In this document: positions 15,276 through 46,989 of the stretch, one piece after another
Position numbering within the stretch: the first letter of the stretch is position 1
Layout of the letters: each line of letters begins with the position of its first letter
Source of the DNA: an uncultured SAR86 cluster bacterium
GTDB taxonomy: Bacteria; Pseudomonadota; Gammaproteobacteria; Magnimaribacterales; D2472
DNA length: 64,000 nt
Assembly: GCA_902596165.1 (NCBI GenBank)
Contig: CACJSU010000002.1
Location: 23,245 to 87,244 of the forward strand
Direction: 5' to 3'
Program-made: the position numbers and the translations under genes
The notes under the pieces: model-generated
Seen by the model: the letters and a program-made list of their open reading frames with translations, nothing else
Database searches by the model: none
What the model was told of the DNA's origin: nothing

Positions 15276-15704
15276 TTAGCCTCTATCTTTAAAGTCTTCA
15301 ACATTTATATCAATTGAATTAATGTCATGAGGCTGTGAAATAGATGATTCATCCCAAAAAGCCCGGCCACTGATAATCTTACCACTCTCATTAACAACAA
15401 AATGATCAACAATTGAAATATCCATACCTGAATTATCATTTGTATTTCTAACCTGCATCACAGCTTTTAAAATACCTTCATTTGCACAAATCACTGTCTC
15501 AACATTTGTGGGTGTAATTTCCATTCCATTACTATGACCAAAATCCCAAAATGCACATATCGCATCAATTCCATTACAAGGCTCTGTTCCAACTGGATCT
15601 TCAAAAATAGCAGCATCATCCCAAAGACTTCTGAATAAGTTTTTATCATTATTCTTGTATGCTAAAACATAATTATCTAGTGCAGCTTGTACCGTTTCTT
15701 TCAT
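15276..15704 (-). CDS. Ketosteroid isomerase-like NTF2 protein
   Basis: N-terminal Tyr, FEDPVG (catalytic Asp), IVDHF..GKIISGRAFW. Confidence 0.75.
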   Translation of the reverse strand: MKETVQAALDNYVLAYKNNDKNLFRSLWDDAAIFEDPVGTEPCNGIDAICAFWDFGHSNGMEITPTNVETVICANEGILKAVMQVRNTNDNSGMDISIVDHFVVNESGKIISGRAFWDESSISQPHDINSIDINVEDFKDRG

Positions 15705-15712
15705 ATTAATTC

Positions 15713-16198
15713 CTATTTTTGTTTTCCTTTTTCTTTAAGTAAAATTTTAGTGAATTTATCATCAGGATTAATGGGTGAAACTTTCTCCCATATACGATCG
15801 TATTCAGAATGTTGAATTAACCATTGATCATCTTCTTTAATATATTTATCAACATATAGTGCAGTGCCTTGAGTAATACTTCCTAAATCAAAGTTATAGA
15901 ATATGTCTTGGAGATACCATTTTCCAGTTGCTTTAATATTTGAGAGAACCTCAATTTCCGGATGATGAGCAGTATGCATTGCAGCAGTCTGATTATGAAA
16001 TGCATGTTTTAAACTTTCCTTGATAGTCTCCTTGCCTTCAGATTCCCATCTATATGTACCACCTCGATAATCAATTGTTATATCTTGTGAAAATACATTA
16101 TCCAATAAATCAAAATCAGCCATATCTATTGCTCTAAAATATCTATGCTTAAGATTTTTAATTTCTTCTATATCAATTAATTTTTGCAGTTTATCCAT
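15713..16198 (-). CDS. SnoaL/BaiE-like NTF2 protein (start moved to ATG 16198)
   Basis: MDKLQKLIDIEEIKNLKHRYFRAID..HTAHHPEI..ATGKWYLQD..Y.D.Y. Confidence 0.72.
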   Translation of the reverse strand: MDKLQKLIDIEEIKNLKHRYFRAIDMADFDLLDNVFSQDITIDYRGGTYRWESEGKETIKESLKHAFHNQTAAMHTAHHPEIEVLSNIKATGKWYLQDIFYNFDLGSITQGTALYVDKYIKEDDQWLIQHSEYDRIWEKVSPINPDDKFTKILLKEKGKQK

Positions 16199-16205
16199 GC
16201 TAGCC

Positions 16206-16958
16206 TTAACGAAGATACGCCTGACCTCCATCAAGCATAATAGTCGATCCAGTGATGTAATTCATTCCATCAGAAAGAATATGACAGACAGCCTCGCCAA
16301 TATCATTTTTGCAGTCACCTACTCTACCCAAGGGTATAGTTTTAAGAAATTCATTAGCTTCATCAGGATACTCATTCATCCACCATTCCATCCCAGTGGA
16401 CTTTGCAAGGGGCATTATGCAATTAACTAAAATATTGTCCTGACCCCACTCTACTGCAGCTGCCCTAGATAAGGATCGAATGGACTCTTTCACAGCTGCA
16501 TAAGCTCCATAAGAATTTGAATCAGGTCGTAAAGCAGAAGAGCTCGCTAAATTAATAACTTTTCCATCCCCTTTTAAATGAGGGTATGAAGCTTTCATAA
16601 AGCGGAATGTTGCCAACGGGCCAGAATTCCATCCATTGATAAAGGATTCGTCCGTTACATCTAAAATATTTCCTAGAGGTACTTCTTGCGCATTATTTAT
16701 TAAAATATTAAGAGACTTAAACTTTGAAATTGTGGCTTCAATTGAATTATTAATAGATTCGTTATTTTTTACATCGCATTCAATTGCAATGGCTGATCCG
16801 CCTAGTCGGTTAATATCTTCGGCAACAGCTTCTACTTTAGAAAGGGTTCTTCCAACTAAGCAGACGCTTGCTCCATATGATGCTAGAGCTCTTGCAATTC
16901 CTTCGCCAACCCCTTGACCGGATCCGGTAATTAAAGCTGTTTTATTTGAAAAATCCAT
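16206..16958 (-). CDS. SDR oxidoreductase (start moved to ATG 16958)
   Basis: MDFSNKTALITGSGQGVG, INNA, YAAVK. Confidence 0.88.
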   Translation of the reverse strand: MDFSNKTALITGSGQGVGEGIARALASYGASVCLVGRTLSKVEAVAEDINRLGGSAIAIECDVKNNESINNSIEATISKFKSLNILINNAQEVPLGNILDVTDESFINGWNSGPLATFRFMKASYPHLKGDGKVINLASSSALRPDSNSYGAYAAVKESIRSLSRAAAVEWGQDNILVNCIMPLAKSTGMEWWMNEYPDEANEFLKTIPLGRVGDCKNDIGEAVCHILSDGMNYITGSTIMLDGGQAYLR

Positions 16959-18667
16959 TAAAAATTTGAACCGGTAATATCTTTTGCAGCCAAATAACCA
17001 AAAGTCATCGCTGGGCCAAGTGTTGAACCAGGACCAGGATAAGTTGGCAACAATGCAGTAGAGCAATTTCCGCATGCATAAAGCCCTGGTATAGCTTTAC
17101 CATCTTTGTTCAACACTCTGGCGTGTGTATCAATTACTAGACCGCCTGCTGTACCCATTTCGCCTGGATACAAAACCATACAATAAAAAGGTCCTGTTTC
17201 TAATGGAGCAAGACATGGATTTGGTGTTACTGATGGATCGCCATAATATCTATCGTAAACACTATCGCCACGTTGAAGATCAAGATCTTTACCTGAGGCA
17301 GCATATTCATTAACTTTTGCCTGAGTTACCAAAAGCCCATCAACATTAATACCCGCCACTTCAGCTAGCTCTTCAAGGGTTTCTCCCTTGGATAAGAAAG
17401 TTGGGGTCCACCACTCTTTTGGCACAGCTGAATCAGGTTGCATCGATGCCTGCAGAAGTGGGCCACAAGGTCTATTTTTTCTAAATGTACTATCAAAAAT
17501 CATGTAACAGGGAGCACAAGGATTTCCCTCAGCGTATTTATCAAACATATCATTTACAAAGCTGACATAGTTTTGTGATTCATTGGAGAATCTTTCACCA
17601 TTTTTATTGACAGTAAAATTTCCAGGCATTGATTTATCTACCATTGATAGCCAACCTTTGTCTTGCCCTGGCACCTTCATTACAGTAGACCACCAACCTG
17701 TATCCATTTGATGAGTATCAGCGCCTAATTTTAATGCAGCCTTTAATGCATCACCTGTATTATAAATATTAGCAGCACTCCACTCTATGTTTGTTGGCTT
17801 AGGCAAATATTGATCTCTCAAAGCTTGATCTTTTTCAAATCCTCCGGAAGCAAGAATAACCCCCTTATTAGCCTTAATATTAATTTCAATATTGTTTTTT
17901 GAAGCCTTAATTCCGATCACCGAACCATTTTCGTCAATAAGATCCGTCATTGCAGTTTCTGTCCATAAATCCACGTTCCTATCCTTTAAAGATAAGATTA
18001 ATCTTGCAACACCTGCATTGCCCATTGTTAATCGTCTGTCTTTCCAACCCCATTTAAGCCTCATTGGTAGATCTAAAATATATTTAGTAAATAGTTTTGC
18101 AAATAAAGATTTCCAGCCAGGCAAAGCCCCAAGTAATAGCTGACCCTCTACTTGGGTAAAATTCATATTTATTGGACCCATGGTAAAGGCAGTTTGTGGG
18201 TGCTGTTCTCTTAATTTACCCAGGTCATCTCCGAGATCAGTTCCCTTTATGGGCTCAGGCTCCATGGATCTATTTCCTGCCTTTCCTCCAGGATTATCTG
18301 GAAAATAATCTGGATAATGAGCTAAATTTCTATATTTAACTTGTGAATTTTCATGAAGATAATCAATCATTTTGGGGCCCTCAGAAAGATAAGTTTCAAC
18401 TAGCTCATCTTTAATTTTTCCCTCAGGTGAAACGCTATTTATGTAGTCTCTTGCATCTTGATCAGAGTCATCGACATTTTCAGCTTTTGCATACCTGTTA
18501 TTAGGTATCCAGACACCTCCACCAGAGGTAGCCGAGGTTCCGCCAAATTGAGTACTTTTTTCTATAACTAATGTTTTTGCACCACCATCGTGGCTGCACA
18601 AAGCAGATGTTAAGGCTCCGTTACCAGAACCAATTACAACCACATCAAATTCATAATCCCATTTCAT
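16958..18667 (-). CDS. 3-ketosteroid-delta1-dehydrogenase-like FAD oxidoreductase
   Basis: GGTSATSGGGVWIPNN, YPDY, NESQNY, GLYACGN, YPGPGSTLGPAMTFGY. Confidence 0.82.
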   Translation of the reverse strand: MKWDYEFDVVVIGSGNGALTSALCSHDGGAKTLVIEKSTQFGGTSATSGGGVWIPNNRYAKAENVDDSDQDARDYINSVSPEGKIKDELVETYLSEGPKMIDYLHENSQVKYRNLAHYPDYFPDNPGGKAGNRSMEPEPIKGTDLGDDLGKLREQHPQTAFTMGPINMNFTQVEGQLLLGALPGWKSLFAKLFTKYILDLPMRLKWGWKDRRLTMGNAGVARLILSLKDRNVDLWTETAMTDLIDENGSVIGIKASKNNIEINIKANKGVILASGGFEKDQALRDQYLPKPTNIEWSAANIYNTGDALKAALKLGADTHQMDTGWWSTVMKVPGQDKGWLSMVDKSMPGNFTVNKNGERFSNESQNYVSFVNDMFDKYAEGNPCAPCYMIFDSTFRKNRPCGPLLQASMQPDSAVPKEWWTPTFLSKGETLEELAEVAGINVDGLLVTQAKVNEYAASGKDLDLQRGDSVYDRYYGDPSVTPNPCLAPLETGPFYCMVLYPGEMGTAGGLVIDTHARVLNKDGKAIPGLYACGNCSTALLPTYPGPGSTLGPAMTFGYLAAKDITGSNF

Positions 18668-18689
18668 AATTTTTATTAATTTTTGTTAA

Positions 18690-18810
18690 ATTGTAACTAA
18701 TTCACTATAACTCAATGGGTATTTTTTAAAAAATTGTTATATATATTTATTTTGATTGACAAATTTTTACCAGTTGATACTCCCAAATTATTTTCATTAA
18801 TGTCTATAAT
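18690..18810. promoter_or_regulatory. Divergent promoter region with motifs shared with the F420 operon promoter
   Basis: Minus: ATACCCATTGA (18722-18712) starting 27 nt before TACAAT. Plus: TTGACAAATTT-N9-GATAC-N24-TATAAT. Confidence 0.5.
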
Positions 18811-18837
18811 CAAGTTTTATAAAAAATGAATTACTAA

Positions 18838-19968
18838 ATGAAAACTGATATTTGTAAAAAACTTGGTATTGAATATCCTATTTTTGCTTTTACTCACTGC
18901 AGGGATGTTGTTGTTGCAGTTAGTAAAGCTGGTGGAATCGGCGTGCTTGGTGCTGTGGGTTATTCACCTGAACAATTGAAAGAAGAGCTTGATTGGATCG
19001 ATAAGCATATTGGAGATTATCCGTATGGCGTTGATACAGTAATTCCACAAAAATATGAAGGTATGGATGAGAAAGATCCCGAGCAATTATTAGAATCATT
19101 GCAAAAAATGATACCCGATGGACATAGAGAATTTGTTGATGCTCTTTTAACAGATAATGGCGTTCCAGAAGCACCAGAATCTAATGGACCCAAAGGTGGG
19201 CTCTTGGGCTGGACAGAGGCAACCGCTGAACCTCAAATAGAAGAGGCTTTAAAACATCCAAATGTAAAATTAATAGCAAATGCTTTGGGTACACCTCCTG
19301 CTGATATGATTAAAAAAATTCAAGATAAAGGCGTTTTGATTGGTGCATTATGTGGAAAAATCAAACAGGCAGTTGCACATAAAGAGGCAGGCCTTGATTT
19401 CATCATTGCACAAGGTGGTGAAGGTGGAGGACATACTGGTGAGATAGGAAGTATAGTTTTGTGGCCTCAAATTGTTGATGCTGTTGATGGGCTACCAGTT
19501 CTAGCTGCAGGTGGAATCGGGAATGGTCGTCAAATGGCTGCAGCTATGTCTACAGGAGCTCAAGGAGTATGGTGTGGTTCATTATGGCTAGCTGTTGAAG
19601 AGGCAGCAGCTCAACCAGCAGAAAAAGATTCATATTTAAATGCAACCAGTGAAGACACAATTAGAAGCAGAGCTTGGACAGGCAAACCTGCAAGAATGCT
19701 AAAAAATAAATGGACAGAAGCATGGGAAAATCCTGACAATCCTGATCCATTACCAATGCCATTACAAGGGATGATTACTTTTGATGCAATGAGACGAACT
19801 TCTATCTATGCTGGCTCAGGTAATACACAGGATGTTTCCTTTAACGCTGCTGGCCAAGTTATTGGCCAAGTAAAACAAATTGAGTCAGTAAAAGATGTGA
19901 TCTATAGAATTATCAATGAATATCTTGATTCAGTTGAGCGACTAAACTCTTTGTTACCAGAAGAATAA
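18838..19968 (+). CDS. Nitronate monooxygenase-family flavoprotein (resembles mycobacterial Rv1894c)
   Basis: LGIEYPIFAFTHCRDVVVAVSKAGG, AQGGEGGGHTG, LAAGGIGNG. Confidence 0.85.
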   Translation: MKTDICKKLGIEYPIFAFTHCRDVVVAVSKAGGIGVLGAVGYSPEQLKEELDWIDKHIGDYPYGVDTVIPQKYEGMDEKDPEQLLESLQKMIPDGHREFVDALLTDNGVPEAPESNGPKGGLLGWTEATAEPQIEEALKHPNVKLIANALGTPPADMIKKIQDKGVLIGALCGKIKQAVAHKEAGLDFIIAQGGEGGGHTGEIGSIVLWPQIVDAVDGLPVLAAGGIGNGRQMAAAMSTGAQGVWCGSLWLAVEEAAAQPAEKDSYLNATSEDTIRSRAWTGKPARMLKNKWTEAWENPDNPDPLPMPLQGMITFDAMRRTSIYAGSGNTQDVSFNAAGQVIGQVKQIESVKDVIYRIINEYLDSVERLNSLLPEE

Positions 19969-19977
19969 ATTTTATCA

Positions 19978-20160
19978 ATGCTTGAAACTCTGTTTTCTGA
20001 GTTAAAAGACCTACTTTGGGGTCTTGGGATAGTGTCTTTTGCTATAGTTGGATTGCTGATGTTGCCTAAAAAACTCTCAAATCAACTTGGTCAGCACCCT
20101 TTTATTTTAACAATCATGTTTTTTTTAATACTCTATGCAGTCATAAGGGTTTTTAATTAG
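19978..20160 (+). CDS. Small two-TM membrane protein
   Basis: 60-aa hydrophobic ORF filling the gap, 9 bp after the upstream stop. Confidence 0.55.
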   Translation: MLETLFSELKDLLWGLGIVSFAIVGLLMLPKKLSNQLGQHPFILTIMFFLILYAVIRVFN

Positions 20161-21458
20161 CTGCTTGAGTTGAAATCTGAAGAGAAGTCCTGAACTAAGT
20201 TAACAAATGCTTTCACTCCGTTAGTTAAAGCAGAATCATCAACATAAAAGTATGGTGAATGATTTGTTGGACTGTCTTCAACTCCTGGTGCATTAACCCC
20301 AAGAAAAAAGAATAGTCCTGGAACTTGTTGAGCAAAAAATGAAAAGTCCTCTGCACCAGTCCGAGGAACTCTTGCCTCATAAAAATCTCCATTTGTAGCT
20401 TCAATTAGAGAGGAGGAATATTTTTTTGCTAGCTCTTCATCGTTAACAGTCACTGGATAGCCTCCATAAACTTTAAATTCGGTAGTAGCCTTAGCATGAT
20501 GGGCAGCAGCTACGTTTTCAGCAATTAGCTTTATCTCATCTCGAATTTGATCAGCATAGGAATCTTTAAATGTTCTTATGGTTCCTTCTAGCATAGCTGT
20601 TGAAGGTATTATGTTATTTCTTGTTCCTGCTTTCATAATTCCAACCGTTACAACTGCCTGACTATCTAAAAGGTTCAACCTTCTACTTACAATGGTTTGT
20701 AAAGTTGTAGCTATGTCAGATGCCGCTATTATTGGATCAACTCCACTCCAAGGCCTTGACCCATGAGTTTGCTTGCCTTGGACAGTTATTCTAAAAGCTT
20801 CAGCTGAAGCCATTATTGGTCCAGGTTTTGTCCAAATTTGACCATTTTTAAAATTAGACACGTGCAATCCAAAAATTGCATCTGGCTTCTCAATTTCAAA
20901 GAGGCCTTCTTTAAGCATTAACTCAGCGCCGCCCTCCTCACCCTCAGGTGCGCCCTCTTCAGCTGGTTGAAAAATTAGCAAAATATCACCATTTAACTTA
21001 TCAGTATTCCTAGAAAGAAAACTTGCAACTCCAAGAAGTACTGCTATGTGAGCGTCATGACCGCATGCATGCATGACTCCAACTTCATTTCCCTGGTATG
21101 TAGTTTTAACTTTTGAAGAAAATGGCAGATTAAGTTTTTCAGTTACTGGCAGTCCATCAATATCAGCTCTAAGTGCAATTAAGGGACCTGGATTTTGACC
21201 TCTAATAAATGCAGTAACTCCTGTGATACCAAATTCTGTATTAGGCTCAAGACCCATCTCAGTTAATGCCTCAACTATAGATTCCTGAGTTTTATATTCT
21301 CTGTTAGAGAGTTCGGGATACTGATGAAAATGATGCCTCCAATCAGTAACCTTTGTCATAACCCCTTGTATGTCTCTATCCAATTGAGTTTTTAGGTCAT
21401 CTGCAGAAATTGGATTTGTAAGTAAAATTAAAAAAAAGAATTGGATAAAATTTTTCAT
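20157..21458 (-). CDS. M20D amidohydrolase with signal peptide
   Basis: HQYPELS, LRADIDGLP, MHACGHDAH, FQPAEEG, GAEDFS, NHSP. Confidence 0.9.
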   Translation of the reverse strand: MKNFIQFFFLILLTNPISADDLKTQLDRDIQGVMTKVTDWRHHFHQYPELSNREYKTQESIVEALTEMGLEPNTEFGITGVTAFIRGQNPGPLIALRADIDGLPVTEKLNLPFSSKVKTTYQGNEVGVMHACGHDAHIAVLLGVASFLSRNTDKLNGDILLIFQPAEEGAPEGEEGGAELMLKEGLFEIEKPDAIFGLHVSNFKNGQIWTKPGPIMASAEAFRITVQGKQTHGSRPWSGVDPIIAASDIATTLQTIVSRRLNLLDSQAVVTVGIMKAGTRNNIIPSTAMLEGTIRTFKDSYADQIRDEIKLIAENVAAAHHAKATTEFKVYGGYPVTVNDEELAKKYSSSLIEATNGDFYEARVPRTGAEDFSFFAQQVPGLFFFLGVNAPGVEDSPTNHSPYFYVDDSALTNGVKAFVNLVQDFSSDFNSSS

Positions 21459-21461
21459 CGC

Positions 21462-22340
21462 TTAGCCCCTTTTAAAAATGTTTATAAAAATTGCTGGGGT
21501 AGAATCCATATATTCCTTAAAATCTGGGCGTCTTTCTAATGAACGTTTATCCATCATTGCAACTGATGCAATAGCAATTAAAGCATACATAATTAAAGAA
21601 CCTATCAAAAGCCATGCAAACGAATAATTAGCTGCCAAAGCAAAGACAAAAAGGCTAAACCAAAACAATATTTCACCAAAGTAGTTTGGATGACGTGAGT
21701 AATACCACAAGCCTGATTTCATAGTTCTAGGTTCAGAAAGATTTTTTCTAAAATTATACATTTGCTGATCAGAGACAATTTGAATGATGACTGCAGCTAC
21801 AGCCAAAAAAGTTGCAAATATATCTAAATTGTTTAATTCGTTACCAGAGTAAGCAAGAGCATAAATCATTGGGAGTAATGCCATATAAACACAAAGCGTT
21901 GGAATAAGATGTATAGAACCAAAATCGACTATGAAGTATTGAAATTTATTCTTTGTTTTCCCTTTCATCATTATGTATCGCCAATCTTCATGTGAGAAAC
22001 CTTCCCATGATCTTATCCAGTTATAGGTTAATCGGATAGCCCATAACAATAAGCATGCATGCATTAAAAATGCCCTTTGAACATCACCTGCTGCAGAGAT
22101 ATCTGCCCAACACATGATTGTTAAGACAACGGGAATAACTGACCAAAAAGCATCGTACCAGCTAGAATTATTGAAAATTACACTTAAAAAATATATAAAA
22201 ATTGTAGCCTCAATGTGGCAAATAAGTACTTTGAATATTAAAGATGATTCAGAAAAAAGGTTCCAAGTAAACTGCATGGAATAAATGCATGCTACGTACC
22301 CAGCTAAAATAACTAATAGATGTAAAAATTTTGTTTTCAT
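21462..22340 (-). CDS. DUF1295 / steroid 5-alpha-reductase-like membrane protein
   Basis: NSSWYDAFWS, EDWRY, GLWYYSRHPNYFGE. Confidence 0.85.
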   Translation of the reverse strand: MKTKFLHLLVILAGYVACIYSMQFTWNLFSESSLIFKVLICHIEATIFIYFLSVIFNNSSWYDAFWSVIPVVLTIMCWADISAAGDVQRAFLMHACLLLWAIRLTYNWIRSWEGFSHEDWRYIMMKGKTKNKFQYFIVDFGSIHLIPTLCVYMALLPMIYALAYSGNELNNLDIFATFLAVAAVIIQIVSDQQMYNFRKNLSEPRTMKSGLWYYSRHPNYFGEILFWFSLFVFALAANYSFAWLLIGSLIMYALIAIASVAMMDKRSLERRPDFKEYMDSTPAIFINIFKRG

Positions 22341-24754
22341 GTGATGTTAATTAATTTTTTAGGTTGATGATAATCATTTTTAATAGGAATGAGAGGAATA
22401 GATTGTAAAGTAATTAAGTCTCGAAGATTATTGTTTAATGAATCGTACAATGTATTTCTTTGCTGTAAATTTAATTTTAATTCATCGGCAATTCCTATTA
22501 CCTCTTCAAGTCTAAGTTCTTGACCAAAAGAAGCGCCAGCAGATCTTGTAATAGATTCATTCATCAACACTCCTCCGATATCATTAATTCCAGAAGTTAA
22601 TAGGAATTTGAGCCCGGCAAGACCCATTTTAACCCAAGAACCCTGAATATTATTGATCTGACCTTGGAAAAGAATTCTGGCAACGGAATGAACCAAAATT
22701 GTTTCTTTAAAAGTAGGGCCTGGTCTGGCTTGACCCCGCCTAAATATAGGAGCCTCATCTGCAACAAATGGCAAAGGTACAAATTCAGTTATACCATTTG
22801 TTTTTTGTTGAAGATTTAAAAGCTTCAATAAATGATGAGCAACATGAGAATTTCTCTCCACATGTCCAAACATCATGGTAGATGTTGTAGGCAATCCTAC
22901 AGAGTGAGAAGTTTCAATGATGTTAATCCATTGCTTGGAGGTAAGTTTATCAGGGCAAATAATTGCTCTTATTTCATCATGCAAAATTTCTGCTGCCGTT
23001 CCTGGAAGTGAGTTCAAACCTGCTTTTTTTAACTCTACAAGAAACTCTTTAACAGAAATATTTAATGTTTTTCTACCGTGATCAATTTCTAAAGGAGAAA
23101 AGGCATGAATATGAATTGATGATGAGGCTGATCTAATTGCCCTAACAATATCAAGGTAAGTTTCACCAGAATATTTTGGATGTATTCCGCCTTGTAAACA
23201 GACTTCCGTAGCACCCCTTTCGATGGCTTCATTTGTTCTTCGGATAATCTCTTCGTGAGAAATATTATATGGCTTACCTCTTAAGTCATCATGACCCCTG
23301 CCTTTAGAAAAAGCACAAAAATTGCACTTGAAAGAACATATATTTGTGTAGTTAATATTTCTGTTAACTACAAAAGTAATATCTGATCCATGAAGTTGTA
23401 ATTTAAGATCATTGGCATAATCAGTAACATATTTAAAATCATTATCAGATGTCTCTAATAGATACTGGATATTCTCAATAGATGGATTATTTTCAACATC
23501 TTTAATTGACTGTCGAATATTAGAAGTAAAAACAGCTTCTGGATATGAAGGTATTTTATTGCTGATTCCTGATCTCCAAAGATCAGACCGAATAAAAGAT
23601 TGAGAATCAGTTATTTGAAGAAGTTTAGAAGATATTCTAGGCGTTGAAAAAGACTTAAGATCAGTAAAATACTTTGGATACAAAGTTGCTCTTGGTTTTA
23701 AAGTTTGTTTTGACCTTGAGATTATTTTATTAAGCTTGGCTATTTCAGGCCATGGCGCTTCAGGATTTACATAATCCTTTGTAACTGGAGATATTCCACC
23801 AAAATCATTAATTCCAGACTGAGCTAATTGATTAATGTGATCTGAATTTAGATTTGGTGGGACCTGAAGACTAACGTCACCAGGTAAGATCAATCTAGCC
23901 ATCGCAATAGTCCACATAAGCTCATCAAATGATGGTTCGCTAGCATTTGCCATCAATGTATTAGGCTTTGCTCTAAAATTCTGCACAATGACTTCTTGAA
24001 TATGATTATGTGCAAAATGCAATTCAGCTATTTTGTGCAATGACTCTAATCGCTCCAACCTTGTTTCACCAATTCCAATTAATATGCCAGTTGTAAAAGG
24101 AACCTTTTGTCTTCCAGCTTCCTCCAATGTCTTCATTCTAAATATAGGATCTTTATCTGGAGATCCGAAGTGCGGCTGACCCCTTTCAGTTAATCGAGAT
24201 GACAAAGACTCAACCATTAATCCCATAGAGCCACTTAGGGGTTTAAGTTGAGTAATTTCATTAGATGTTAGGCAACCAGGATTTAAATGAGGAATCAAAG
24301 ATGTCTCATTTAATACAGCATCAGCGCATGCAGCCAAATAATCATTTGTTGTCTTGAAACCATTTAAAGACAGCCAATCTCTAGCAGTCTTATATCTTAA
24401 TTCAGGCTTATCACCAAGTGTAAATAATGCTTCATGACAGCCATTAGCCTCGCCCTCTTTAGCAATTGAGATAACTTGATCAATTGATAAATATGGAGAT
24501 TTGACCTTCTTAGGCGTTTTAGCAAATGTACAGTAATGACAAACATCCCGACATAAAAATGTTAAAGGAATAAAAACCTTTGGTGAATAGGTTAATAGAT
24601 CTTTAAAATACGTTTTTTTCTTCTCATAGGATGCTTTGATTAAGTCATCAGATAAACAAATATTAGCTAAGGAGCTTAATTCAGAAAATTCAATTGATTC
24701 CGAAGTAATTAGTTGCTCTAAAGCTTGGTTTGACTGTTCTTGAATTTTCAACAA
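22337..24754 (-). CDS. fbiC: FO synthase FbiC (CofG+CofH fusion)
   Basis: TYSPKVFIPLTFLCRDVCHYC and NRNINYTNICSFKCNFCAFSKG radical-SAM motifs; GTAAEIL; MNESITRSAGA. Confidence 0.95.
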   Translation of the reverse strand: MLKIQEQSNQALEQLITSESIEFSELSSLANICLSDDLIKASYEKKKTYFKDLLTYSPKVFIPLTFLCRDVCHYCTFAKTPKKVKSPYLSIDQVISIAKEGEANGCHEALFTLGDKPELRYKTARDWLSLNGFKTTNDYLAACADAVLNETSLIPHLNPGCLTSNEITQLKPLSGSMGLMVESLSSRLTERGQPHFGSPDKDPIFRMKTLEEAGRQKVPFTTGILIGIGETRLERLESLHKIAELHFAHNHIQEVIVQNFRAKPNTLMANASEPSFDELMWTIAMARLILPGDVSLQVPPNLNSDHINQLAQSGINDFGGISPVTKDYVNPEAPWPEIAKLNKIISRSKQTLKPRATLYPKYFTDLKSFSTPRISSKLLQITDSQSFIRSDLWRSGISNKIPSYPEAVFTSNIRQSIKDVENNPSIENIQYLLETSDNDFKYVTDYANDLKLQLHGSDITFVVNRNINYTNICSFKCNFCAFSKGRGHDDLRGKPYNISHEEIIRRTNEAIERGATEVCLQGGIHPKYSGETYLDIVRAIRSASSSIHIHAFSPLEIDHGRKTLNISVKEFLVELKKAGLNSLPGTAAEILHDEIRAIICPDKLTSKQWINIIETSHSVGLPTTSTMMFGHVERNSHVAHHLLKLLNLQQKTNGITEFVPLPFVADEAPIFRRGQARPGPTFKETILVHSVARILFQGQINNIQGSWVKMGLAGLKFLLTSGINDIGGVLMNESITRSAGASFGQELRLEEVIGIADELKLNLQQRNTLYDSLNNNLRDLITLQSIPLIPIKNDYHQPKKLINIT

Positions 24755-24755
24755 T

Positions 24756-25331
24756 TTAACTATTAATATATTTAATTAGTTTGAAGTAATCTTCCTCGGA
24801 GTCAAGGTCATCTTGAATGCTTTCAATGGAAATATTTTGATAATCTATATCATTATTTTGAAATTCATTCACAAAAAGATTATAGCTATCTATACCAAAT
24901 TTTAGATTAAAAGTTATTGATGAGTTGAACATCAAGCAATTTGTTCCTTGTGTGAAAAAATCAGAAATAATACTGACTTTTTTTATATCAAAAGTTTTTG
25001 CAAGCTCATGAAGATCTTTTTCATTAATTTTAGGAAGATCAGCATGCATGATTAAAATAATGCCATTAGTAGAGTGCAAATTTATAGCCTCATTCAAACC
25101 ATCATTCAATGAAGAATTTGTAAAATATGAAGTTGAATGATTTAAATTTAGATTGCTATCATTTGTAACAACTGTTATCGAATCGCAGATTTCTGAATTA
25201 TGCAAAGTAGTTATTGTTTTTTTTGCCATTGAAGCAGCTAACATTTCTCGTTCAGATGAACTAATAATATTTGACAGTCGGTTCTTTGAAGATGAAAACT
25301 TTTTTATTGGGATGAATGCAGAGACATTCAT
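24756..25331 (-). CDS. cofC: 2-phospho-L-lactate/PEP guanylyltransferase CofC (FbiD)
   Basis: IPIK..SKNRLS, HADLP, GTN, FG.DS, DLDSEED; operon position. Confidence 0.85.
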   Translation of the reverse strand: MNVSAFIPIKKFSSSKNRLSNIISSSEREMLAASMAKKTITTLHNSEICDSITVVTNDSNLNLNHSTSYFTNSSLNDGLNEAINLHSTNGIILIMHADLPKINEKDLHELAKTFDIKKVSIISDFFTQGTNCLMFNSSITFNLKFGIDSYNLFVNEFQNNDIDYQNISIESIQDDLDSEEDYFKLIKYINS

Positions 25332-26261
25332 TTATTTAGATTCAAGTTCATGAATTATTGCCTCGGCAAGTGCATTTTTGTTATCAATAGTATTCATGAT
25401 TAAATCTGCAATATGCACTTCATAACCAAGATCATTTAATTTGTTGGATTCGTCTAAATCAGATGAATCTATAAATATTCTTTTAGAATAACTTTTATAA
25501 AACTTACCAATAGTTTTAACGTCCACTTCTTGGCCAAGCTCTTGCATCATTTTGGCAGTTGGACCTTTTAATGACTGAGCATTAACTATTGGACTTATAA
25601 CAGTAACTTTTTCTGAATAATCATGTAAATAATTTTTTAATGAAGATAATTGAAGCATTGGGTTGATGCTTACATAAGGGTTTGATGGACATATAATAAT
25701 TTCATCATAAGTTGATAAATCTAAATCTTCATTAAAACCAGCCTTATCCAGTCCCTTGAACACGAAGTCAGCTACAGGTGGTTCGCATTTCAATTTTACA
25801 AAATATTCTTGAAATGAAAGTAATCTATTTTTTGTTTGTATATAAGTTTCAACAGGTTGGTTGCTCATTGGAAAGATATTTTTCGGTAGGTTAAATGACT
25901 CACATAAAGTTTGAGTGGCTTGAGTAAGTGATTGACCATTATTTATTAAATACGTTCTTTGAATATGGGTAGCTAAATCTTTATCTCCAAGTTGAAACCA
26001 TGTTTCTCCTCCCATTTCAGACAAAGCTGAAAGCATATTCCATGATTCATCTTTTCTACCCCAGCCCTTTGATGTATCTGATTCCCCCGCAAGGGTATAC
26101 ATCACAGTATCAAGATCGGGACAGATTTTTAATCCATAATGAGTGAAATCATCTCCGGTATTAACAGCAATAGTTAATTTTTTTGGATCAATTGAATTTT
26201 TAAAACCCAATGCAAGCTTAGCTCCCCCTACTCCTCCACATAATAAAAGATAATTTTTCAT
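25332..26261 (-). CDS. cofD: 2-phospho-L-lactate transferase CofD (FbiA)
   Basis: GGVGGAKL, VNTGDD, ICPDLDTVMYTLAG, WFQLGDKDLATH, FQEYFV, PSNPYVSI, KGPTAKMM. Confidence 0.95.
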   Translation of the reverse strand: MKNYLLLCGGVGGAKLALGFKNSIDPKKLTIAVNTGDDFTHYGLKICPDLDTVMYTLAGESDTSKGWGRKDESWNMLSALSEMGGETWFQLGDKDLATHIQRTYLINNGQSLTQATQTLCESFNLPKNIFPMSNQPVETYIQTKNRLLSFQEYFVKLKCEPPVADFVFKGLDKAGFNEDLDLSTYDEIIICPSNPYVSINPMLQLSSLKNYLHDYSEKVTVISPIVNAQSLKGPTAKMMQELGQEVDVKTIGKFYKSYSKRIFIDSSDLDESNKLNDLGYEVHIADLIMNTIDNKNALAEAIIHELESK

Positions 26262-27019
26262 CTAAATAAATCCTCGTCTTCACTACGAATTAATGATTGA
26301 GAATCACTGAGGTTATTTTGATTAAATTTATAGTCCTTTATTAACACAACAGGTTTTTTCTGTGCAGCTTGACCCATTAATAATGATGCGGCAGCTGCTA
26401 ACTCATCTGCAATACCAATTTGAGTTACTTTAAGTTCATTACCAAATAGATCATTTTTTCCTCGCTCGTCTAAAAGGCATTCAATATTATGACTGCCAAT
26501 AGTAAAACCCACTATCCCATTCCTAAAAGGCCTTCCCATGGTATCTGTAATAATTACAGATATATTTTTTTGAAAATGCTCAGATAAAGAATGTGAAATC
26601 TTTTTTGCAGAATCATCAGGATTTTCTGGTAACAACAACACGATGTCTGGTTTTTGATCAATATTGGATCTATCAATACCAGCATTCGCATGAATAAACC
26701 CTAGCTTATGCTCAACTATCAATACTCCCATTCTATATCGCACTACTTTCTTGGACTCATTCAAGATGGCTTGAATAAATCTTGGATCTTTATCAATTTT
26801 AGTTGCTAAAGTTTTTGCTTCATCTGATGGACTAAGCCCTGAAATATCTAGATATCTATTTTCTGACTTAGAAACAATCTTTTGGGCAACTGCTATCACA
26901 TCTCCATCATCAATATGGAGCGCTTCTGATTCTATGGCTTTGATAATTTCTGCAGACAAATCTTGTCCGGGCTGGATCAGAGGTAATGTCTCTAATGCTA
27001 TGAGGTTTATAGAACTAAT
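26258..27019 (-). CDS. cofE: F420-0:gamma-glutamyl ligase CofE; start placed at in-frame ATT 27019
   Basis: AQKIVSKSE, ANAGIDRSN, LLPENPD, ITDTMGRPFRNG, ADELAAAA; conserved N-terminus LIALETLPLIQPGQDL lies upstream of the track start. Confidence 0.92.
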   Translation of the reverse strand: MSSINLIALETLPLIQPGQDLSAEIIKAIESEALHIDDGDVIAVAQKIVSKSENRYLDISGLSPSDEAKTLATKIDKDPRFIQAILNESKKVVRYRMGVLIVEHKLGFIHANAGIDRSNIDQKPDIVLLLPENPDDSAKKISHSLSEHFQKNISVIITDTMGRPFRNGIVGFTIGSHNIECLLDERGKNDLFGNELKVTQIGIADELAAAASLLMGQAAQKKPVVLIKDYKFNQNNLSDSQSLIRSEDEDLFR

Positions 27020-27034
27020 AATATTTCTCTTTTT

Positions 27035-27667
27035 TTAATGGCCTGTAATCTTGATGCCTGAATGTGCAAGTGAGTGTTTTTTGTTAATTGCAATAAGTAT
27101 TGAGGTCAAGGCTTCTGCTGCAACTGAATTGCATAATGGTCCTGCATGCCATCCAGTAAGACCAGCATCTGATGCCAGATCAATAACTATATTTCTTGCC
27201 TCTATCAAGTCTCCAGCAACCAATACATCACAATCTATTTTTGCATCAGTTTGAAGTAATTCAGCTGAGATATTTTGAAAAGCTGATACTACGGTTGTAT
27301 GTTCACCTAATATTGATTGTGCATTTAAAGCTGCCGAGCCACCTTCTGGCAATTGAACTCTCATTACTTTAGGTGGCATAAGGGGAACAGTTGCATCGAT
27401 CATAATTTTATTATGCAAAGTATTTTCTATACTCAAGAGCGTTGATTCTTGATGGGCAAATGGAACTGTTAAACAAGCAATTTCACAAGATTTAGCAGCA
27501 TCAATATTGAGCATCCCAGAAGAATGATCAAGGCCTAGTTGATCAGCTATTTCTTGAGCTTTTAATAAATCACGACTTCCGATAATGATCTCATGACCTG
27601 CTTTAATCCACCTTGAGCCCAATCCTTTGCCCAAAGAGCCTGTACCACCGAGAATAGCTATTTTCAT
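27035..27667 (-). CDS. npdG: NADPH-dependent F420 reductase (Fno)
   Basis: GGTGSLGKGL, IGSR, LTVPF, IDATVPL, SAFQNISA, AEALTSILI; heads the cof operon; AGGAG RBS. Confidence 0.93.
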   Translation of the reverse strand: MKIAILGGTGSLGKGLGSRWIKAGHEIIIGSRDLLKAQEIADQLGLDHSSGMLNIDAAKSCEIACLTVPFAHQESTLLSIENTLHNKIMIDATVPLMPPKVMRVQLPEGGSAALNAQSILGEHTTVVSAFQNISAELLQTDAKIDCDVLVAGDLIEARNIVIDLASDAGLTGWHAGPLCNSVAAEALTSILIAINKKHSLAHSGIKITGH

Positions 27668-27697
27668 TCAATATCTCCTGATTGATATGTAATAAAT

Positions 27698-27751
27698 ATT
27701 ATACAAATTCATCAACCAATCAATGGGTATCTTTAAGAATAAATTTGTCAA
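27698..27751 (-). promoter_or_regulatory. Putative promoter/operator of the F420 operon
   Basis: Minus strand TTGACAAATTT-N9-GATACCCATTGA..TATAAT (27703-27698). Confidence 0.5.
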
Positions 27752-27809
27752 CATAAATCAAGCATACATACTCTATAATAAAAATGATTGAATCTAAAAA
27801 ATACTAAAA

Positions 27810-28577
27810 ATGATAAATTTAAAAAACAAATCAATAGTGGTAACCGGAGGTACAAAAGGTATTGGCGTTGAAATCACTAAATCCTTTTTAAAGCAAAATT
27901 CCCGAGTCTTCGTTCTTGCAAGACAAAAACCTAAAAGAATTATCCAAGCAAAAGGGAATAAAGCTATATTTATTGAATGTGACATAAGAAAAATTGAGTC
28001 CTTAGATAATGCGGTAAAAGAGATTAAAACGTCATCAAAATCGATTGATGTTTTGATCAATAATGTTGGTGGTGCTCCAATGGCTGATGCCTTGAATGTA
28101 TCCAATAAATTTCATGAAGCAGTTATTGATTTGAATTTAATTGCACCACTGAACGTAAGCCAAAGATTTGCAAAAATTATGATGAAACAAAAGACGGTTT
28201 CAAATATCATAAATATATCTAGCGTTACAGCAACTAGACCTACACCTGGAAGTGCTGCTTATGGAGCTGCCAAGGGCGCCCTCGTAAATCTTACTAAAAC
28301 TCTAGCTGTCGAATGGGCTCCAAAAATTAAAGTTAACTCTATTGTTGTTGGCTACATAGAAACTGAAAATTCAATAGTGCATTACGGAAGCAAAAAAGAG
28401 ATAAATAAAGTTGCAAAGCGAATCCCAATGAAAAGGATGGGGAAACCAGAAGATGTTGCAAATGCCTGCATATTCTTTGCCTCTACCTTAGCAGATTGGA
28501 TTACAGGTGCTGCTTTAGAGGTTCATGGTGGGGGTGAAAAACCTACTTATCTAGAAGTAGCTAAACCTAAAAAATAA
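27810..28577 (+). CDS. SDR oxidoreductase
   Basis: TGGTKGIG, NNVGG, YGAAK, LEVHGGGE. Confidence 0.9.
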   Translation: MINLKNKSIVVTGGTKGIGVEITKSFLKQNSRVFVLARQKPKRIIQAKGNKAIFIECDIRKIESLDNAVKEIKTSSKSIDVLINNVGGAPMADALNVSNKFHEAVIDLNLIAPLNVSQRFAKIMMKQKTVSNIINISSVTATRPTPGSAAYGAAKGALVNLTKTLAVEWAPKIKVNSIVVGYIETENSIVHYGSKKEINKVAKRIPMKRMGKPEDVANACIFFASTLADWITGAALEVHGGGEKPTYLEVAKPKK

Positions 28578-28584: not shown

Positions 28585-30111
28585 TTAACCAAATAGTTTT
28601 CTAACTAATCGATTTCCCCAAAATATTTTCAAAGCGCCCTTAAGTTGCTCAAATGATTTATCAGTGTAGGGATATGCAGATGCTGATTTTTTGCCAATAA
28701 TTATAGGCATAGGGTGGGCGTACGCCAGCAAGCCCTCTTTGCCATTAACCACACCCAATCCGCTTTCTTTTACACCACCAAATGGAACTTCATTGACGCC
28801 ATAGCTCATTGCCATGTCATTTACAGAACAGGCACCTGTTTCAATTGATTTTGCTAACCTTTGGCCTTTTTTTAGATCTTTAGTCCAAACATTTCCATTT
28901 AATCCATAGTGAGATTGATTTGCCAACATTAATGCTTCATCTTCTGATTGAACTTTCATGATAGAAATAATTGGTCCAAAAGTTTCATCCTTCATGATCT
29001 TCATCTCATGGGTCACTTCGACAAGAACAGTTGGTTCAAAATATAAACCTTCAAACATAGGATTTCTTTTGCCACCAACCAATATTTTTGCACCTTTGTC
29101 TACAGCATCCTTGACATGATCTTCGATAATATCTATTTGTTTGTCCCAAAAAGTTGGACCCACATCACCTTTACAATCATTTGATTGGATTAGTTTTTTG
29201 GTAATATTCACGACTTCATCAACGAACTCATCATAAACATCATCCATAACGTAAATTCTTTCAGTGCCACAACAATATTGACCAGCATTCATGCAGGAAC
29301 CCACAACTGCACCACTGGCTGCATCTTTTATATCAGCATCCGAACAAACAATCATGGCGTCTTTACCACCTAATTCAAGACTATAAGGAATAAGCATTTG
29401 GCCACATTTTGCAGCAATCTTCTTTCCAGTAACAACACTGCCTGTGAAGGAAACTTTATCTGGGCCTTGATCAATTAATTCAGCACCAGTTTCTCCATCT
29501 CCAATTACAGTTTGAACTAGATGTTGAGGTGCTTCTGCTAATGCAAAGATCTCTTGAACTAGTGCCCCTGACATTGGTGTTACCTCAGATGGTTTTACTA
29601 CAACGCTGTTTCCACAAAGAACGGCTTGAATTACTGGATTAATGGAAAGTATAAATGGACCATTCCATGGGGTGATTACAGCCACAACTCCTCTTGGCTT
29701 GAAAGTGATAATAGTCTTTTTTAGGAACTGCATAGGACCATGCATTTTAATTTTTTTATCTGAAAGCCATTTTTGTGCTCTCTTAGCGTAAAAAACCAAA
29801 GAATCTACAGCTGAGAAAACCTCCATAGACATTGCCTCTTGCTCAGGTTTACCAGTTTCCCTCATTACAACATCCATGATTCTATCTTGTTGCTGTATGA
29901 CAACATCAGCAACTTTGTGCATTAATTCAACTCTCTCTTTTAGGGTTGTTTTTTTCCATTCACTTTGAGCAACTTTAGCTTGAGTCATTATGGTTGATAT
30001 TTCTTCAACAGATGTACATTCATAAGTATCAATAGGCGAAAGATCAACAGGACTTTTTAAATTTAAAAGTTTTTTGCCGGTTTCGGAATGTGAGATAGAA
30101 AAAATAGCCAT
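28585..30111 (-). CDS. Aldehyde dehydrogenase
   Basis: ITPWNGP, KPSEVTP, FTGS, LELGGKD, NAGQYCC, ETFGP, PFGGVKESG. Confidence 0.93.
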   Translation of the reverse strand: MAIFSISHSETGKKLLNLKSPVDLSPIDTYECTSVEEISTIMTQAKVAQSEWKKTTLKERVELMHKVADVVIQQQDRIMDVVMRETGKPEQEAMSMEVFSAVDSLVFYAKRAQKWLSDKKIKMHGPMQFLKKTIITFKPRGVVAVITPWNGPFILSINPVIQAVLCGNSVVVKPSEVTPMSGALVQEIFALAEAPQHLVQTVIGDGETGAELIDQGPDKVSFTGSVVTGKKIAAKCGQMLIPYSLELGGKDAMIVCSDADIKDAASGAVVGSCMNAGQYCCGTERIYVMDDVYDEFVDEVVNITKKLIQSNDCKGDVGPTFWDKQIDIIEDHVKDAVDKGAKILVGGKRNPMFEGLYFEPTVLVEVTHEMKIMKDETFGPIISIMKVQSEDEALMLANQSHYGLNGNVWTKDLKKGQRLAKSIETGACSVNDMAMSYGVNEVPFGGVKESGLGVVNGKEGLLAYAHPMPIIIGKKSASAYPYTDKSFEQLKGALKIFWGNRLVRKLFG

Positions 30112-30113
30112 TG

Positions 30114-31184
30114 TTATAATTCCTTAAGTTTTGCTTCAAGCATTGGTGTTACATGATTATTAATGTGTGCATTTAAACCAAGTGGCATCATTTCATAATG
30201 CTCAAGCTTCCTGACGACCTTAACCATGATTACAGTAAATTTATACAATGCTAAAAGATAATAGTAGTCATAATCATCTGCACTAAATCCGGTTAAAGCT
30301 TCCCATTTTGCTATGGTGGCTACTGGTCCTGGAAAGCCGCTTAATCTGTCTACATGTACACCTTTGGAATTACAATCATCAATAGCTATTCCCCAAGCAA
30401 GGTCCATGCAAGGATCTCCTAGGGCAGCCATTTCCCAATCTAAAACAGCTGAAACTTGTCCATCAAGGTTATACATAATATTTGCACATCTGCAATCTCC
30501 CCAAAGGATAGAAGCTTGAGTTGGTTTTGGTTTATTTTTCTTCAACCATTCTCTTGCCTGATCTGCTGCTGGATGGGCTTCACCTTCCATAGCCCAATCA
30601 TGAAAATCAAAGTAATAATTTAATTCTTGATCAAGGTAATCTTCAGCAATTTTTGGCCGGTTAAGAAACTCAAAGTCTCCATTAGATATGTCTACCTTAT
30701 GAATTTTAGCCATCTGCTCAACCCACCCCCACCAGATTCTCTCTCTTACTTCTTCAGATGAATCAGCAACCCAACCTTCTTGATGAAACGGGGGGTTATC
30801 AGATGGAGCATCGCCGCTTGCCATTTCCATAACATAAAAAGATGTTCCAAAAACCGCGTCACTGGGCTCATACCAAAGAACTTTTGGAACTTTGATATCG
30901 TGATCAGCTAGTTTTTGCATAATTAAAAACTGTTTGTGAATATCATAATCAGGAAATACAAAGAAACCTTCTGGATGGAATCTAAGCACCATGCCAGTTT
31001 CTATACTTGTTCCGTTTAATTTATAAGAAACATTAAAACTTAATGTTTCGTTAGAAAAACCTGTATTTTCAGGTCCCCCTAATAACTCCACATTCAGATC
31101 ACTAACTCCATCTAGTTTTCTCTCAATCCAGTTACTAAAAATTACTCTAGTCGCATCTAAATCTCTTTCTTGTGGCTTCGGCAT
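30114..31184 (-). CDS. APH/choline kinase-like phosphotransferase family protein
   Basis: GFSNET, FYVME, LWGDCRCANI, VLDWEMA.LGDP. Confidence 0.82.
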   Translation of the reverse strand: MPKPQERDLDATRVIFSNWIERKLDGVSDLNVELLGGPENTGFSNETLSFNVSYKLNGTSIETGMVLRFHPEGFFVFPDYDIHKQFLIMQKLADHDIKVPKVLWYEPSDAVFGTSFYVMEMASGDAPSDNPPFHQEGWVADSSEEVRERIWWGWVEQMAKIHKVDISNGDFEFLNRPKIAEDYLDQELNYYFDFHDWAMEGEAHPAADQAREWLKKNKPKPTQASILWGDCRCANIMYNLDGQVSAVLDWEMAALGDPCMDLAWGIAIDDCNSKGVHVDRLSGFPGPVATIAKWEALTGFSADDYDYYYLLALYKFTVIMVKVVRKLEHYEMMPLGLNAHINNHVTPMLEAKLKEL

Positions 31185-35225: not shown

Positions 35226-35258
35226 AAATAACTAAAATATCTTCTAATACCAAAGACT

Positions 35259-42047: not shown

Positions 42048-42051
42048 TTTA

Positions 42052-46988: not shown

Positions 46989-46989
46989 A

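Follow-up and report, generated by a model that had tools for sequence, protein, structure and literature searches.

Genes for coenzyme F420 are already known from Proteobacteria and occur abundantly in marine metagenomes; in these bacteria FbiC is fused and Fno is a common F420 reductant (passages of PMC8498797). According to the same passages, the 2-phospholactate (2-PL) route requires a kinase, CofB, that has been identified in no organism, the PEP route gives DH-F420-0 and requires a reductase in the form of either the FbiB C-terminal domain or FbiE, and the two alphaproteobacteria tested gave only trace F420. For use of 3-PG, a section of PMC8764529 names a Ser or Thr equivalent to S162 of Mrhiz-CofC as diagnostic, with His145 aiding. 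No paper in the literature searched ties F420 to SAR86-like plankton, and F420 goes unmentioned in the main text and available supplements of the SAR86 comparison PMC11582366.

Here we describe, in a 64-kb stretch of DNA (the window), an operon that is very probably a vertically retained unit for F420 biosynthesis and recharging, predicted to be functional and arranged in the usual proteobacterial layout. An earlier note on this DNA had placed it in a compact marine gammaproteobacterium, which agrees with a GC content of 31-38% (reported for SAR86 as 31-40% in part of PMC11582366), a coding fraction of 95% and nearest relatives that are labelled Gammaproteobacteria, several of them from Tara samples. 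Because the same gene set and order are common in other proteobacteria, the locus is one more instance of an established arrangement; with it, predicted F420 producers gain a numerous low-GC marine gammaproteobacterial lineage, a clade in which ~5.3 kb of cofactor genes are kept under purifying selection.

Gene content and organisation

Five co-oriented minus-strand open reading frames (ORFs) form the string npdG-cofE-cofD-cofC-fbiC (Table 1), with outer coordinates, 22337-27667, exactly as first claimed. The gaps between successive genes are 75, -4, 0 and 1 nt, the first measured with the 233-aa cofE ORF and the second being a 4-nt overlap of cofD and cofE. First in the string is npdG, whose ATG is preceded, 7 nt upstream, by an AGGAG ribosome-binding site. 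Consensus scans of 19800-28000 returned 19 promoter-like sites, fewer than the 36.1 that shuffles predict, and 4 terminator-like sites, about the 4.4 of shuffles, and an Rfam scan of the whole 64-kb window gave zero matches and thus no riboswitch.

Table 1. Features of the F420 locus and adjoining genes, in window coordinates.
Feature	Coordinates	Strand	Length	Product or role	Family evidence
npdG/fno	27035..27667	-	210 aa	NADPH-dependent F420 reductase	TIGR01915, PF03807
cofE	26258..27022	-	233 aa as mechanical ORF (26258-26959, TTG start)	F420-0:gamma-glutamyl ligase, single domain	TIGR01916
cofD	25332..26261	-	309 aa	2-phospho-L-lactate (or enolpyruvyl) transferase	TIGR01819
cofC	24756..25331	-	191 aa	Guanylyltransferase activating C3 acid; predicted 2-PL/PEP type	TIGR03552
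fbiC	22337..24754	-	805 aa	FO synthase, fused CofG+CofH	TIGR03550 + TIGR03551
DUF1295	21462..22340	-	292 aa	Membrane protein, steroid-5-alpha-reductase clan	PF06966 (147.2 bits)
M20	20157..21458	-	433 aa	M20 amidohydrolase	PF01546, TIGR01891 (328.3 bits)
Intergenic region	27668..27809		142 nt	npdG to divergent SDR gene; presumed operon promoter region	

The gene identities proposed earlier were borne out, all five proteins scoring above curated NCBIfam family cut-offs and Pfam concurring for each; family E-values of 1e-31 to 1e-296 exclude chance matches. NpdG belongs to the Fno/NpdG family (188.7 bits, cut-off 149.8, NCBIfam), matches PDB 5n2i over residues 2-208 (E 4e-34) and 1jax (E 9e-32), and has GGTGSLG and GSR motifs that align with those of T. 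fusca Fno. In its 233-aa form CofE scores 256.5 bits (cut-off 180.65) over profile positions 21-244 and matches A. fulgidus CofE 2g9i at E 5e-45, while CofD falls within the CofD/FbiA family (274.6 bits, cut-off 257.45) and matches both 3c3d (E 1e-51) and FbiA 6uvx (E 1e-49). CofC passes at the borderline, with 108.9 bits against a cut-off of 105 (a margin of 3.9 bits), and matches M. mazei CofC 2i5e at E 5e-7. FbiC is a fused FO synthase: its CofG and CofH domains score 478.4 bits (cut-off 213.35) and 498.3 bits (cut-off 374.1), the whole-length bifunctional model NF006687 gives 985.3, just under its cut-off of 1018, and each half carries one CxxxCxxC motif. Both radical-SAM motifs are intact, as the earlier note had held: CRDVCHYC (residue 68, 24553-24530) and CSFKCNFC (residue 473, 23338-23315).

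Full-length cofE has no ATG, GTG or TTG start. An in-frame open stretch runs upstream to ATT at 27019/27022 and encodes a conserved CofE N-terminus, and the start is probably this ATT; the peptide is kept in relatives, and in one of them (L002, below) an ATT lies one base past the npdG stop. Thus extended, CofE scores 271.2 bits over profile positions 2-244 of TIGR01916, a full-profile match. An AlphaFold model of the extended protein, built on a shallow 12-row alignment, has a mean pLDDT of 56.4 and is confident only in the N-terminal block of residues 11-60 (82-92), with a strand at residues 10-13, which hints that the upstream stretch may be structured. The protein stops where the CofE profile ends, and neither Pfam nor NCBIfam found a C-terminal nitroreductase domain on it. 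An FbiB-type CofE was considered and rejected: the 449-position model NF009810 gave 182.2 bits, below its cut-off of 304, with only positions 29-243 matched.

Judging from the literature on these families, FbiC would carry out two radical-SAM reactions that turn tyrosine and 5-amino-6-ribitylaminouracil into the FO headgroup, CofC would use GTP to activate a C3 phospho-acid, either 2-phospho-L-lactate or PEP rather than 3-phosphoglycerate, and CofD would pass the activated acid to FO. The single-domain CofE would then add gamma-glutamates, and Fno (NpdG) would deliver hydride from NADPH to the cofactor. The enzymes that use F420H2, together with a 2-phospholactate source or a dehydro-F420 reductase, would be encoded outside the 64-kb window.

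Conservation and relatives

Measured against L001, an 88%-identical relative that served as the reference, dN/dS lies at 0.04-0.10 (CofE 0.038, CofD 0.086, CofC 0.098, FbiC 0.098). Synteny also persists in L002, whose five proteins are 34-66% identical (CofD 53%) and which has the same gene order and neighbourhood, and the claim that the operon has been retained is therefore upheld. Its supposed rarity is not: among related loci with enough flank (at least 2.5 kb upstream and at least 4.5 kb downstream), 23 of 54 keep the five genes in this order, as do 18 of the 28 labelled Gammaproteobacteria. Many near-identical CofD, CofE and MetRS clusters stem from ocean metagenomes. In a quick, unrooted CofD tree of 81 rows (the window and the 80 best of 580 relatives), a starred clade (99) unites the window with L001 and L002. 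The clade sits on a long branch and joins, at 94 (not starred), rows of odd composition that include two marine Chloroflexota, a position too loose for us to claim a donor or a transfer.

Linker substrate and end product

The string SDFFTQGTNCL, residues 123-133 of CofC, had been taken as a mark of divergence and a possible sign of 3PG-F420. Its GTN is nonetheless invariant in all 73 filled rows of a 74-row CofC alignment, as are the ligand- and Mg-binding positions (K, D, G-x-N, S, D, D; 73/73 filled rows), every one of which the window protein matches. By alignment, its K10, L79, D98, T130, G146 and S149 are M. tuberculosis FbiD K17, L92, D116, T148, G163 and S166; D175 and D177 were paired with D188 and D190 on motif grounds, using the M. 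mazei CofC alignment and column counts, and both sit in columns that hold D in 73 of the 73 filled rows. With a score above the cut-off and the FbiD ligand and Mg residues conserved, the protein belongs with the CofC/FbiD guanylyltransferases; it falls outside the 3-PG-activating CofCs, having Gly146 and Thr130 in place of Ser/Thr and His. Judged by these residues, CofC is not catalytically divergent and, because Gly rather than Ser/Thr occupies the 3-PG-diagnostic position (a column with G in 53 rows, D in 19 and N in 1), the predicted product is ordinary F420 or dehydro-F420, not 3PG-F420.

A divergent, Mycetohabitans-like CofC yielding 3PG-F420 is accordingly hard to credit at all. Among the five proteins CofC shows the lowest conservation (34% identity to L002); it clears its family cut-off narrowly and has a weak match to the 3-PG enzyme 7p97 (E 0.012, N-terminus only), but Gly146 aligns with FbiD Gly163, the counterpart of Ser162 in the 3-PG enzyme, and Thr130 with Thr148, the counterpart of His145, and none of the 74 aligned rows carries the Ser/Thr published as diagnostic. 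Less remote, though still unlikely, is an end product that is dehydro-F420 (DF420, from PEP) instead of classical F420. The statement that the five genes suffice for F420 went too far: CofE is single-domain, without an FbiB-type C-terminal domain, the window encodes no reductase for dehydro-F420 and no source of 2-phospholactate, and Pfam and NCBIfam found no nitroreductase-family (PF00881) gene in its 64 kb. The DH-F420-0 of the PEP route depends on the FbiB C-terminal domain or FbiE (PMC8498797, in part), and in-vitro CofC assays do not separate 2-PL from PEP as the in-vivo substrate; against this, the proteobacterial CofCs assayed used 2-PL best (both from sections of PMC8764529), and since the view is limited to 64 kb of the genome, an FbiE homologue may sit elsewhere. 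A low-probability idea, weaker than the DUF1295 reading given below, is that an aldehyde dehydrogenase (ALDH) and APH-family kinase pair (28585-31184, syntenic) provides lactate and 2-phospholactate and so the CofB step. Among solved structures, the kinase is closest to 9fsg (an unnamed APH-like protein), 3ats and the kinase domain of ACAD11; only a few other loci have an APH or ALDH gene close to the F420 operon.

Client enzymes and gene neighbourhood

Pfam was scanned with the 59 ORFs of at least 90 aa in the window, 13 at E<=1e-3 and 46 at E<=1e-5; six with no match or a generic (SnoaL-like) one were rescanned at E<=5, and NCBIfam was also run on those six and on four flavoenzyme or unexplained ORFs. 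The absence of an LLM or FDOR client from the window, asserted earlier, was confirmed: Bac_luciferase, PNPOx-like and F420H2_quin_red are missing from the 59 ORFs, and there is no Fgd among them. Two family-less ORFs, 44640-45107 and 60796-61218, were considered as FDORs and set aside, neither giving an FDOR signal in Pfam (E<=5) or NCBIfam. In contrast to the window, luciferase-like genes occur no more than 10 kb upstream of npdG in five of eight hand-picked loci from proteobacteria that carry this operon. What surrounds the operon here is a set of steroid/lipid-type catabolic genes (KstD-like, KshA-like, thiolases, SDRs, PhyH), a trait consistent with SAR86 (PMC11582366, in part), and this gene neighbourhood alone suggests a putative link between F420 and lipid or steroid chemistry. 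The M20 amidohydrolase, which starts 3 nt past DUF1295, has a hydrophobic, signal-peptide-like N-terminus and is syntenic in L001 and L002, is probably unrelated to F420.

One way to account for a 64-kb window without an F420 client would be that the genes serve mainly to furnish a photolyase with FO as its antenna in a bacterium of the surface ocean, the F420 branch being secondary. FO is a known photolyase chromophore (PMC8498797, in part); yet it needs none of cofC, cofD, cofE or fno, which are under purifying selection and conserved across the clade, and no photolyase gene was found in the 64-kb window, so that this reading is most improbable. Slightly better placed, but still improbable, is the DUF1295 protein as a local F420H2-using enzyme, reducing C=C bonds of lipids or sterols. 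The start of its gene and the fbiC stop share 4 nt, in L001 as well as in the window, and the L002 version of the gene, 55% identical, is adjacent to fbiC; the protein groups with steroid-5-alpha-reductase-like families, its atlas neighbours being DUF1295/Steroid_dh clusters, and steroid/lipid-type genes ring the operon. However, DUF1295 follows fbiC in just 2 of 80 related loci, and because both belong to the window's own clade with its wholesale synteny, the adjacency may be mere inheritance; unrelated genes in the window are also joined by 4-nt overlaps (for example 6783/6780 and 9516/9513). To our knowledge, the reductases known from the steroid-5-alpha-reductase clan use NADPH, which also counts against the proposal, and no paper in the literature searched mentions both DUF1295 and F420. 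Whether the gene is part of the F420 unit is uncertain, and it is a long shot that in this clade F420H2 is used not by LLM or FDOR enzymes but by a DUF1295 protein translationally coupled to fbiC; if true, F420-dependent reductases would gain a new class, an enzyme of steroid-5-alpha-reductase fold that acts on C=C bonds of membrane lipids or sterols.

Comparison with known F420 systems

An operon for F420 biosynthesis and recharging, the reading we prefer, shares parts with each of the described systems. With the mycobacterial FbiA/FbiB/FbiC/FbiD system (PEP route) it has in common a fused FbiC, CofC ligand residues that are those of FbiD, and a CofD that matches FbiA, but the window lacks the FbiB-type CofE-nitroreductase fusion, which serves as the mycobacterial dehydro-F420 reducer. 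The euryarchaeal 2-phospho-L-lactate route likewise has a single-domain CofE, and the best structural matches of the window CofC, CofD and CofE are archaeal (2i5e, 3c3d and 2g9i), whereas its FO synthase is split into CofG and CofH and that of the window is fused. The Mycetohabitans 3PG-F420 pathway also combines a proteobacterial host, a single-domain CofE and Fno as the sole known F420 reductant, but the Ser162/His145 pair that permits 3-PG there is Gly146/Thr130 here.

The operon also resembles the proteobacterial cluster of the F420-producing alphaproteobacteria Paracoccus denitrificans and Oligotropha carboxidovorans (PMC8498797, in part). The window genes differ from it in being low-GC and fast-evolving, with a CofD 38-46% identical to all relatives outside the clade, in a CofC that is shorter (191 aa) than other proteobacterial CofCs and without their C-terminal tail, and in having DUF1295 and M20 after fbiC with no adjacent LLM or FDOR gene. 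Both nevertheless comprise a fused FbiC, a stand-alone single-domain CofE, CofC and CofD, and in both Fno is the only F420-reducing enzyme nearby.

Identity and arrangement of the operon

The F420 operon in the window is real, intact, under selection and of the usual proteobacterial type. As the earlier note had proposed, npdG, cofE, cofD, cofC and fbiC lie co-oriented and nearly abutting across 22337-27667: the open reading frames occupy the identical span, NCBIfam and Pfam agree on what they encode, and the intergenic spacing from npdG to fbiC runs 75, -4, 0 and 1 nt. In FbiC both radical-SAM motifs are likewise intact (CRDVCHYC, residue 68; CSFKCNFC, residue 473); the NCBIfam model for the full-length bifunctional protein falls slightly under its cut-off (985.3 vs 1018). 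The nearest solved structures for the operon proteins are Fno, CofE, CofD/FbiA and CofC.

Coordinates of the F420 operon genes, the neighbouring SDR gene and the two DUF1295 genes of the window
Feature	Position	Strand	Identity and remarks
npdG	27035-27667	minus	Pfam F420_oxidored; NCBIfam equivalog above curated cut-off
cofE (as called ORF)	26258-26959	minus	Pfam F420_ligase; NCBIfam equivalog above curated cut-off
cofD	25332-26261	minus	Pfam CofD; NCBIfam equivalog above curated cut-off
cofC	24756-25331	minus	Pfam CofC; NCBIfam 108.9 vs cut-off 105, a narrow margin
fbiC (CofG+CofH)	22337-24754	minus	Pfam Radical_SAM and CofH_C; both NCBIfam domain models pass
SDR	27810-28577	plus	PRK07856 equivalog, 325.4 bits; divergent from npdG
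DUF1295 membrane protein 1	21462-22340	minus	Steroid-5-alpha-reductase clan; 4-nt overlap with fbiC stop
DUF1295 membrane protein 2	49215-49997	minus	Also matches Steroid_dh; adjoins double HxlR regulator

A scan with a CofD alignment, taking one genome per species, returned at least 580 relatives, from which the best 80 were kept; 54 of these 80 loci were usable for gene order, with at least 2.5 kb upstream and at least 4.5 kb downstream of cofD. Within that best-80 sample the order npdG-cofE-cofD-cofC-fbiC on one strand occurs in 23 of the 54 usable loci, and by label in 18 of 28 from Gammaproteobacteria and 4 of 14 from Alphaproteobacteria. A review describes F420 genes as variable across Proteobacteria and abundant in marine metagenomes, and FbiC as fused in Proteobacteria (PMC8498797). 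Taken together, the recurrence of the order and the review make the window operon a further example of an already known proteobacterial arrangement.

Host and conservation

The interest of the operon is mainly ecological. It lies in an abundant, low-GC clade of marine gammaproteobacteria. Housekeeping genes, among them those for RNase E, NhaB, MlaA, PdxJ and MetRS, and the names of close homologues ('Gammaproteobacteria bacterium', TMED104 and TMED236 among them, with several from Tara samples) support a marine gammaproteobacterium as the probable host, and the window's GC of 31-38% and abundant steroid- and lipid-type genes agree with the SAR86 order as described in PMC11582366. Our literature search returned no paper tying F420 to SAR86-type plankton, though genome lists of relevance may exist outside its scope, in Ney et al. 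2017 or in supplements on bioRxiv. The 59 non-overlapping ORFs fill 95% of the window, and a signalling cluster at 38707-44634, which combines a 992-aa hybrid histidine kinase with a stand-alone receiver, an EAL protein and a receiver-GGDEF protein, represents much regulation for so compact a genome. Two ORFs, at 44640-45107 (minus, 155 aa) and 60796-61218 (plus, 140 aa), have no Pfam match at E<=5; the latter has no NCBIfam match either, and the former only two, far under their cut-offs (17.9 vs 169.85 bits; 12.4 vs 264.3).

Among the best 80 of at least 580 relatives, the window's clade comprises only the loci L001 (CofD 88% identity) and L002 (53%, TMED104). With the window they form a clade, starred in our quick, unrooted CofD tree, on a branch so long, and with a wider placement so little fixed, that it allows no donor to be named. 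L002 and the window are colinear for ~17 kb, through sulfotransferase, unknown, APH, ALDH, SDR, five F420 genes, DUF1295, M20, NMO and KstD-like. Against L001, dN/dS is 0.038-0.098 for the four comparable F420 genes (npdG is absent because the L001 contig ends) and similar, at 0.023-0.067, for their neighbours. Low dN/dS and colinearity together indicate that the F420 genes are maintained by selection.

Compared with L002, CofC, CofD, FbiC and DUF1295 retain 34-55% identity and NpdG and CofE 66%, while the syntenic KstD-like, NMO, M20 and ALDH proteins are clearly better kept (70-80%). The cofactor proteins may evolve faster over deep time, as the sequences suggest, despite low dN/dS at the short distance to L001.

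The start of cofE

The 75-nt 'gap' between npdG and cofE (26960-27034, minus) is an open extension of the cofE frame, which is shared with that of npdG, and encodes IISSINLIALETLPLIQPGQD. With it included, CofE scores 271.2 rather than 256.5 bits against TIGR01916, and profile coverage widens from 21-244 to 2-244. The N-terminal peptide is kept in relatives, whose called lengths are inconsistent (233, 242, 253 and 269-295 aa), and a predicted CofE model, of low confidence overall (mean pLDDT 56.4), has a strand modelled with confidence inside the stretch. The alternative is a CofE without ~20 N-terminal residues, as in the called ORF. The stretch 26960-27034 holds no ATG, GTG or TTG. ATT codons stand at 27022 and 27019, 3' of a purine-rich run, and in L002 an ATT occupies the equivalent site, 1 base past the npdG stop, and from this ATT its CofE covers profile positions 1-244. 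Translation of the longer protein is likely, starting from a near-cognate AUU (27019 or 27022) or by reinitiation coupled to npdG termination.

Candidate clients and the lipid/steroid neighbourhood

Family searches of the window ORFs found no luciferase-like, PNPOx-like/FDOR or Fgd gene within the 64 kb, which upholds the earlier reading that the window holds no LLM or FDOR client. For comparison, eight other proteobacterial loci with a full operon and 20-kb flanks were picked by hand. Five of them (L016, L036, L042, L073 and L007) carry one to three Bac_luciferase genes at most 10 kb upstream of npdG, matches at the level of Pfam, which alone cannot tell F420 use, and in L007 a PNPOx_N gene sits immediately upstream as well; no Bac_luciferase gene lies within that distance in L057, L079 or L012. 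In the window's clade a divergently transcribed SDR gene fills the site upstream of npdG, and L057, a Halieaceae locus outside the clade, has a 46%-identical SDR at the same site (7558-8334). Beyond the window's SDR gene, at 28585-31184 (minus), an aldehyde dehydrogenase gene is separated by 2 nt from an APH-family kinase gene, and the pair keeps its synteny with the operon in L002; the best solved relatives of the kinase are APH-like 9fsg, 3ats and the ACAD11 kinase domain.

Lipid- and steroid-type genes of the window encode a KstD-like protein (under its cut-off), a KshA-like Rieske protein, thiolases, an acyl-CoA ligase, PhyH, several SDRs and SnoaL-like proteins, one OYE and the two DUF1295 proteins. 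Catabolic steroid-, terpenoid- and lipid-type genes are dense at 15276-19968, 33482-36221 and 45306-55338, where the KstD-like flavoprotein, KshA-like Rieske oxygenase, thiolases, acyl-CoA ligase, SDRs, SnoaL-like proteins and OYE are joined by NMO/FabK-like proteins and an RPE65-type carotenoid oxygenase. The overlap of DUF1295 with the fbiC stop is retained in L001 and L002. A lipid or steroid role for F420, read from this neighbourhood, stays a guess, because DUF1295 directly follows fbiC in only 2 of the 80 loci (best 80 of at least 580), synteny across the entire region reflects common descent, and 4-nt overlaps link unrelated genes elsewhere in the window too. That the DUF1295 protein is itself an F420 client is very improbable, and our literature search returned no paper with both DUF1295 and F420.

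The predicted product

The claim that the five genes suffice for F420 is not established, because CofE is single-domain and the 59 window ORFs include none of the nitroreductase family. According to PMC8498797, the 2-phospho-L-lactate (2-PL) route relies on a still unidentified lactate kinase, CofB, and the PEP route yields dehydro-F420-0, reduced by FbiB's C-terminal domain or a stand-alone FbiE. Classical F420 would thus require a gene outside the window; otherwise the product would be dehydro-F420.

The earlier note read CofC as divergent and possibly of the 3PG-F420 type, pointing to the motif SDFFTQGTNCL at residues 123-133; comparison with FbiD, the mycobacterial CofC, does not support this. 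Aligned by HMMER with M. tuberculosis FbiD (6bwg, chain numbering offset by 14), the window CofC pairs K10/K17, L79/L92, D98/D116, T130/T148, G146/G163 and S149/S166; D175 and D177 are paired with FbiD D188 and D190 by motif (M. mazei CofC alignment and column counts). Across 74 aligned CofC sequences (the window plus 73 loci), the residues K, D, G-x-N, S, D and D never vary in the 73 rows that are filled at those columns. PMC8764529 gives as diagnostic of 3-phosphoglycerate (3-PG) use a Ser/Thr at Mrhiz-CofC S162 (FbiD G163), assisted by His145 (FbiD T148). The diagnostic column holds G 53, D 19, N 1 and S/T 0 over the 74 rows, and the window CofC has Gly there and Thr at the His145 equivalent; from these residues and the conserved ligand columns we predict a 2-PL/PEP-type enzyme. 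PMC8764529 also cautions that in-vitro assays cannot tell 2-PL from PEP, and that CofD too selects the intermediate. The 3-PG enzyme Mrhiz-CofC is thus marked by S162 and His145, whereas the window CofC carries Gly146 and Thr130.
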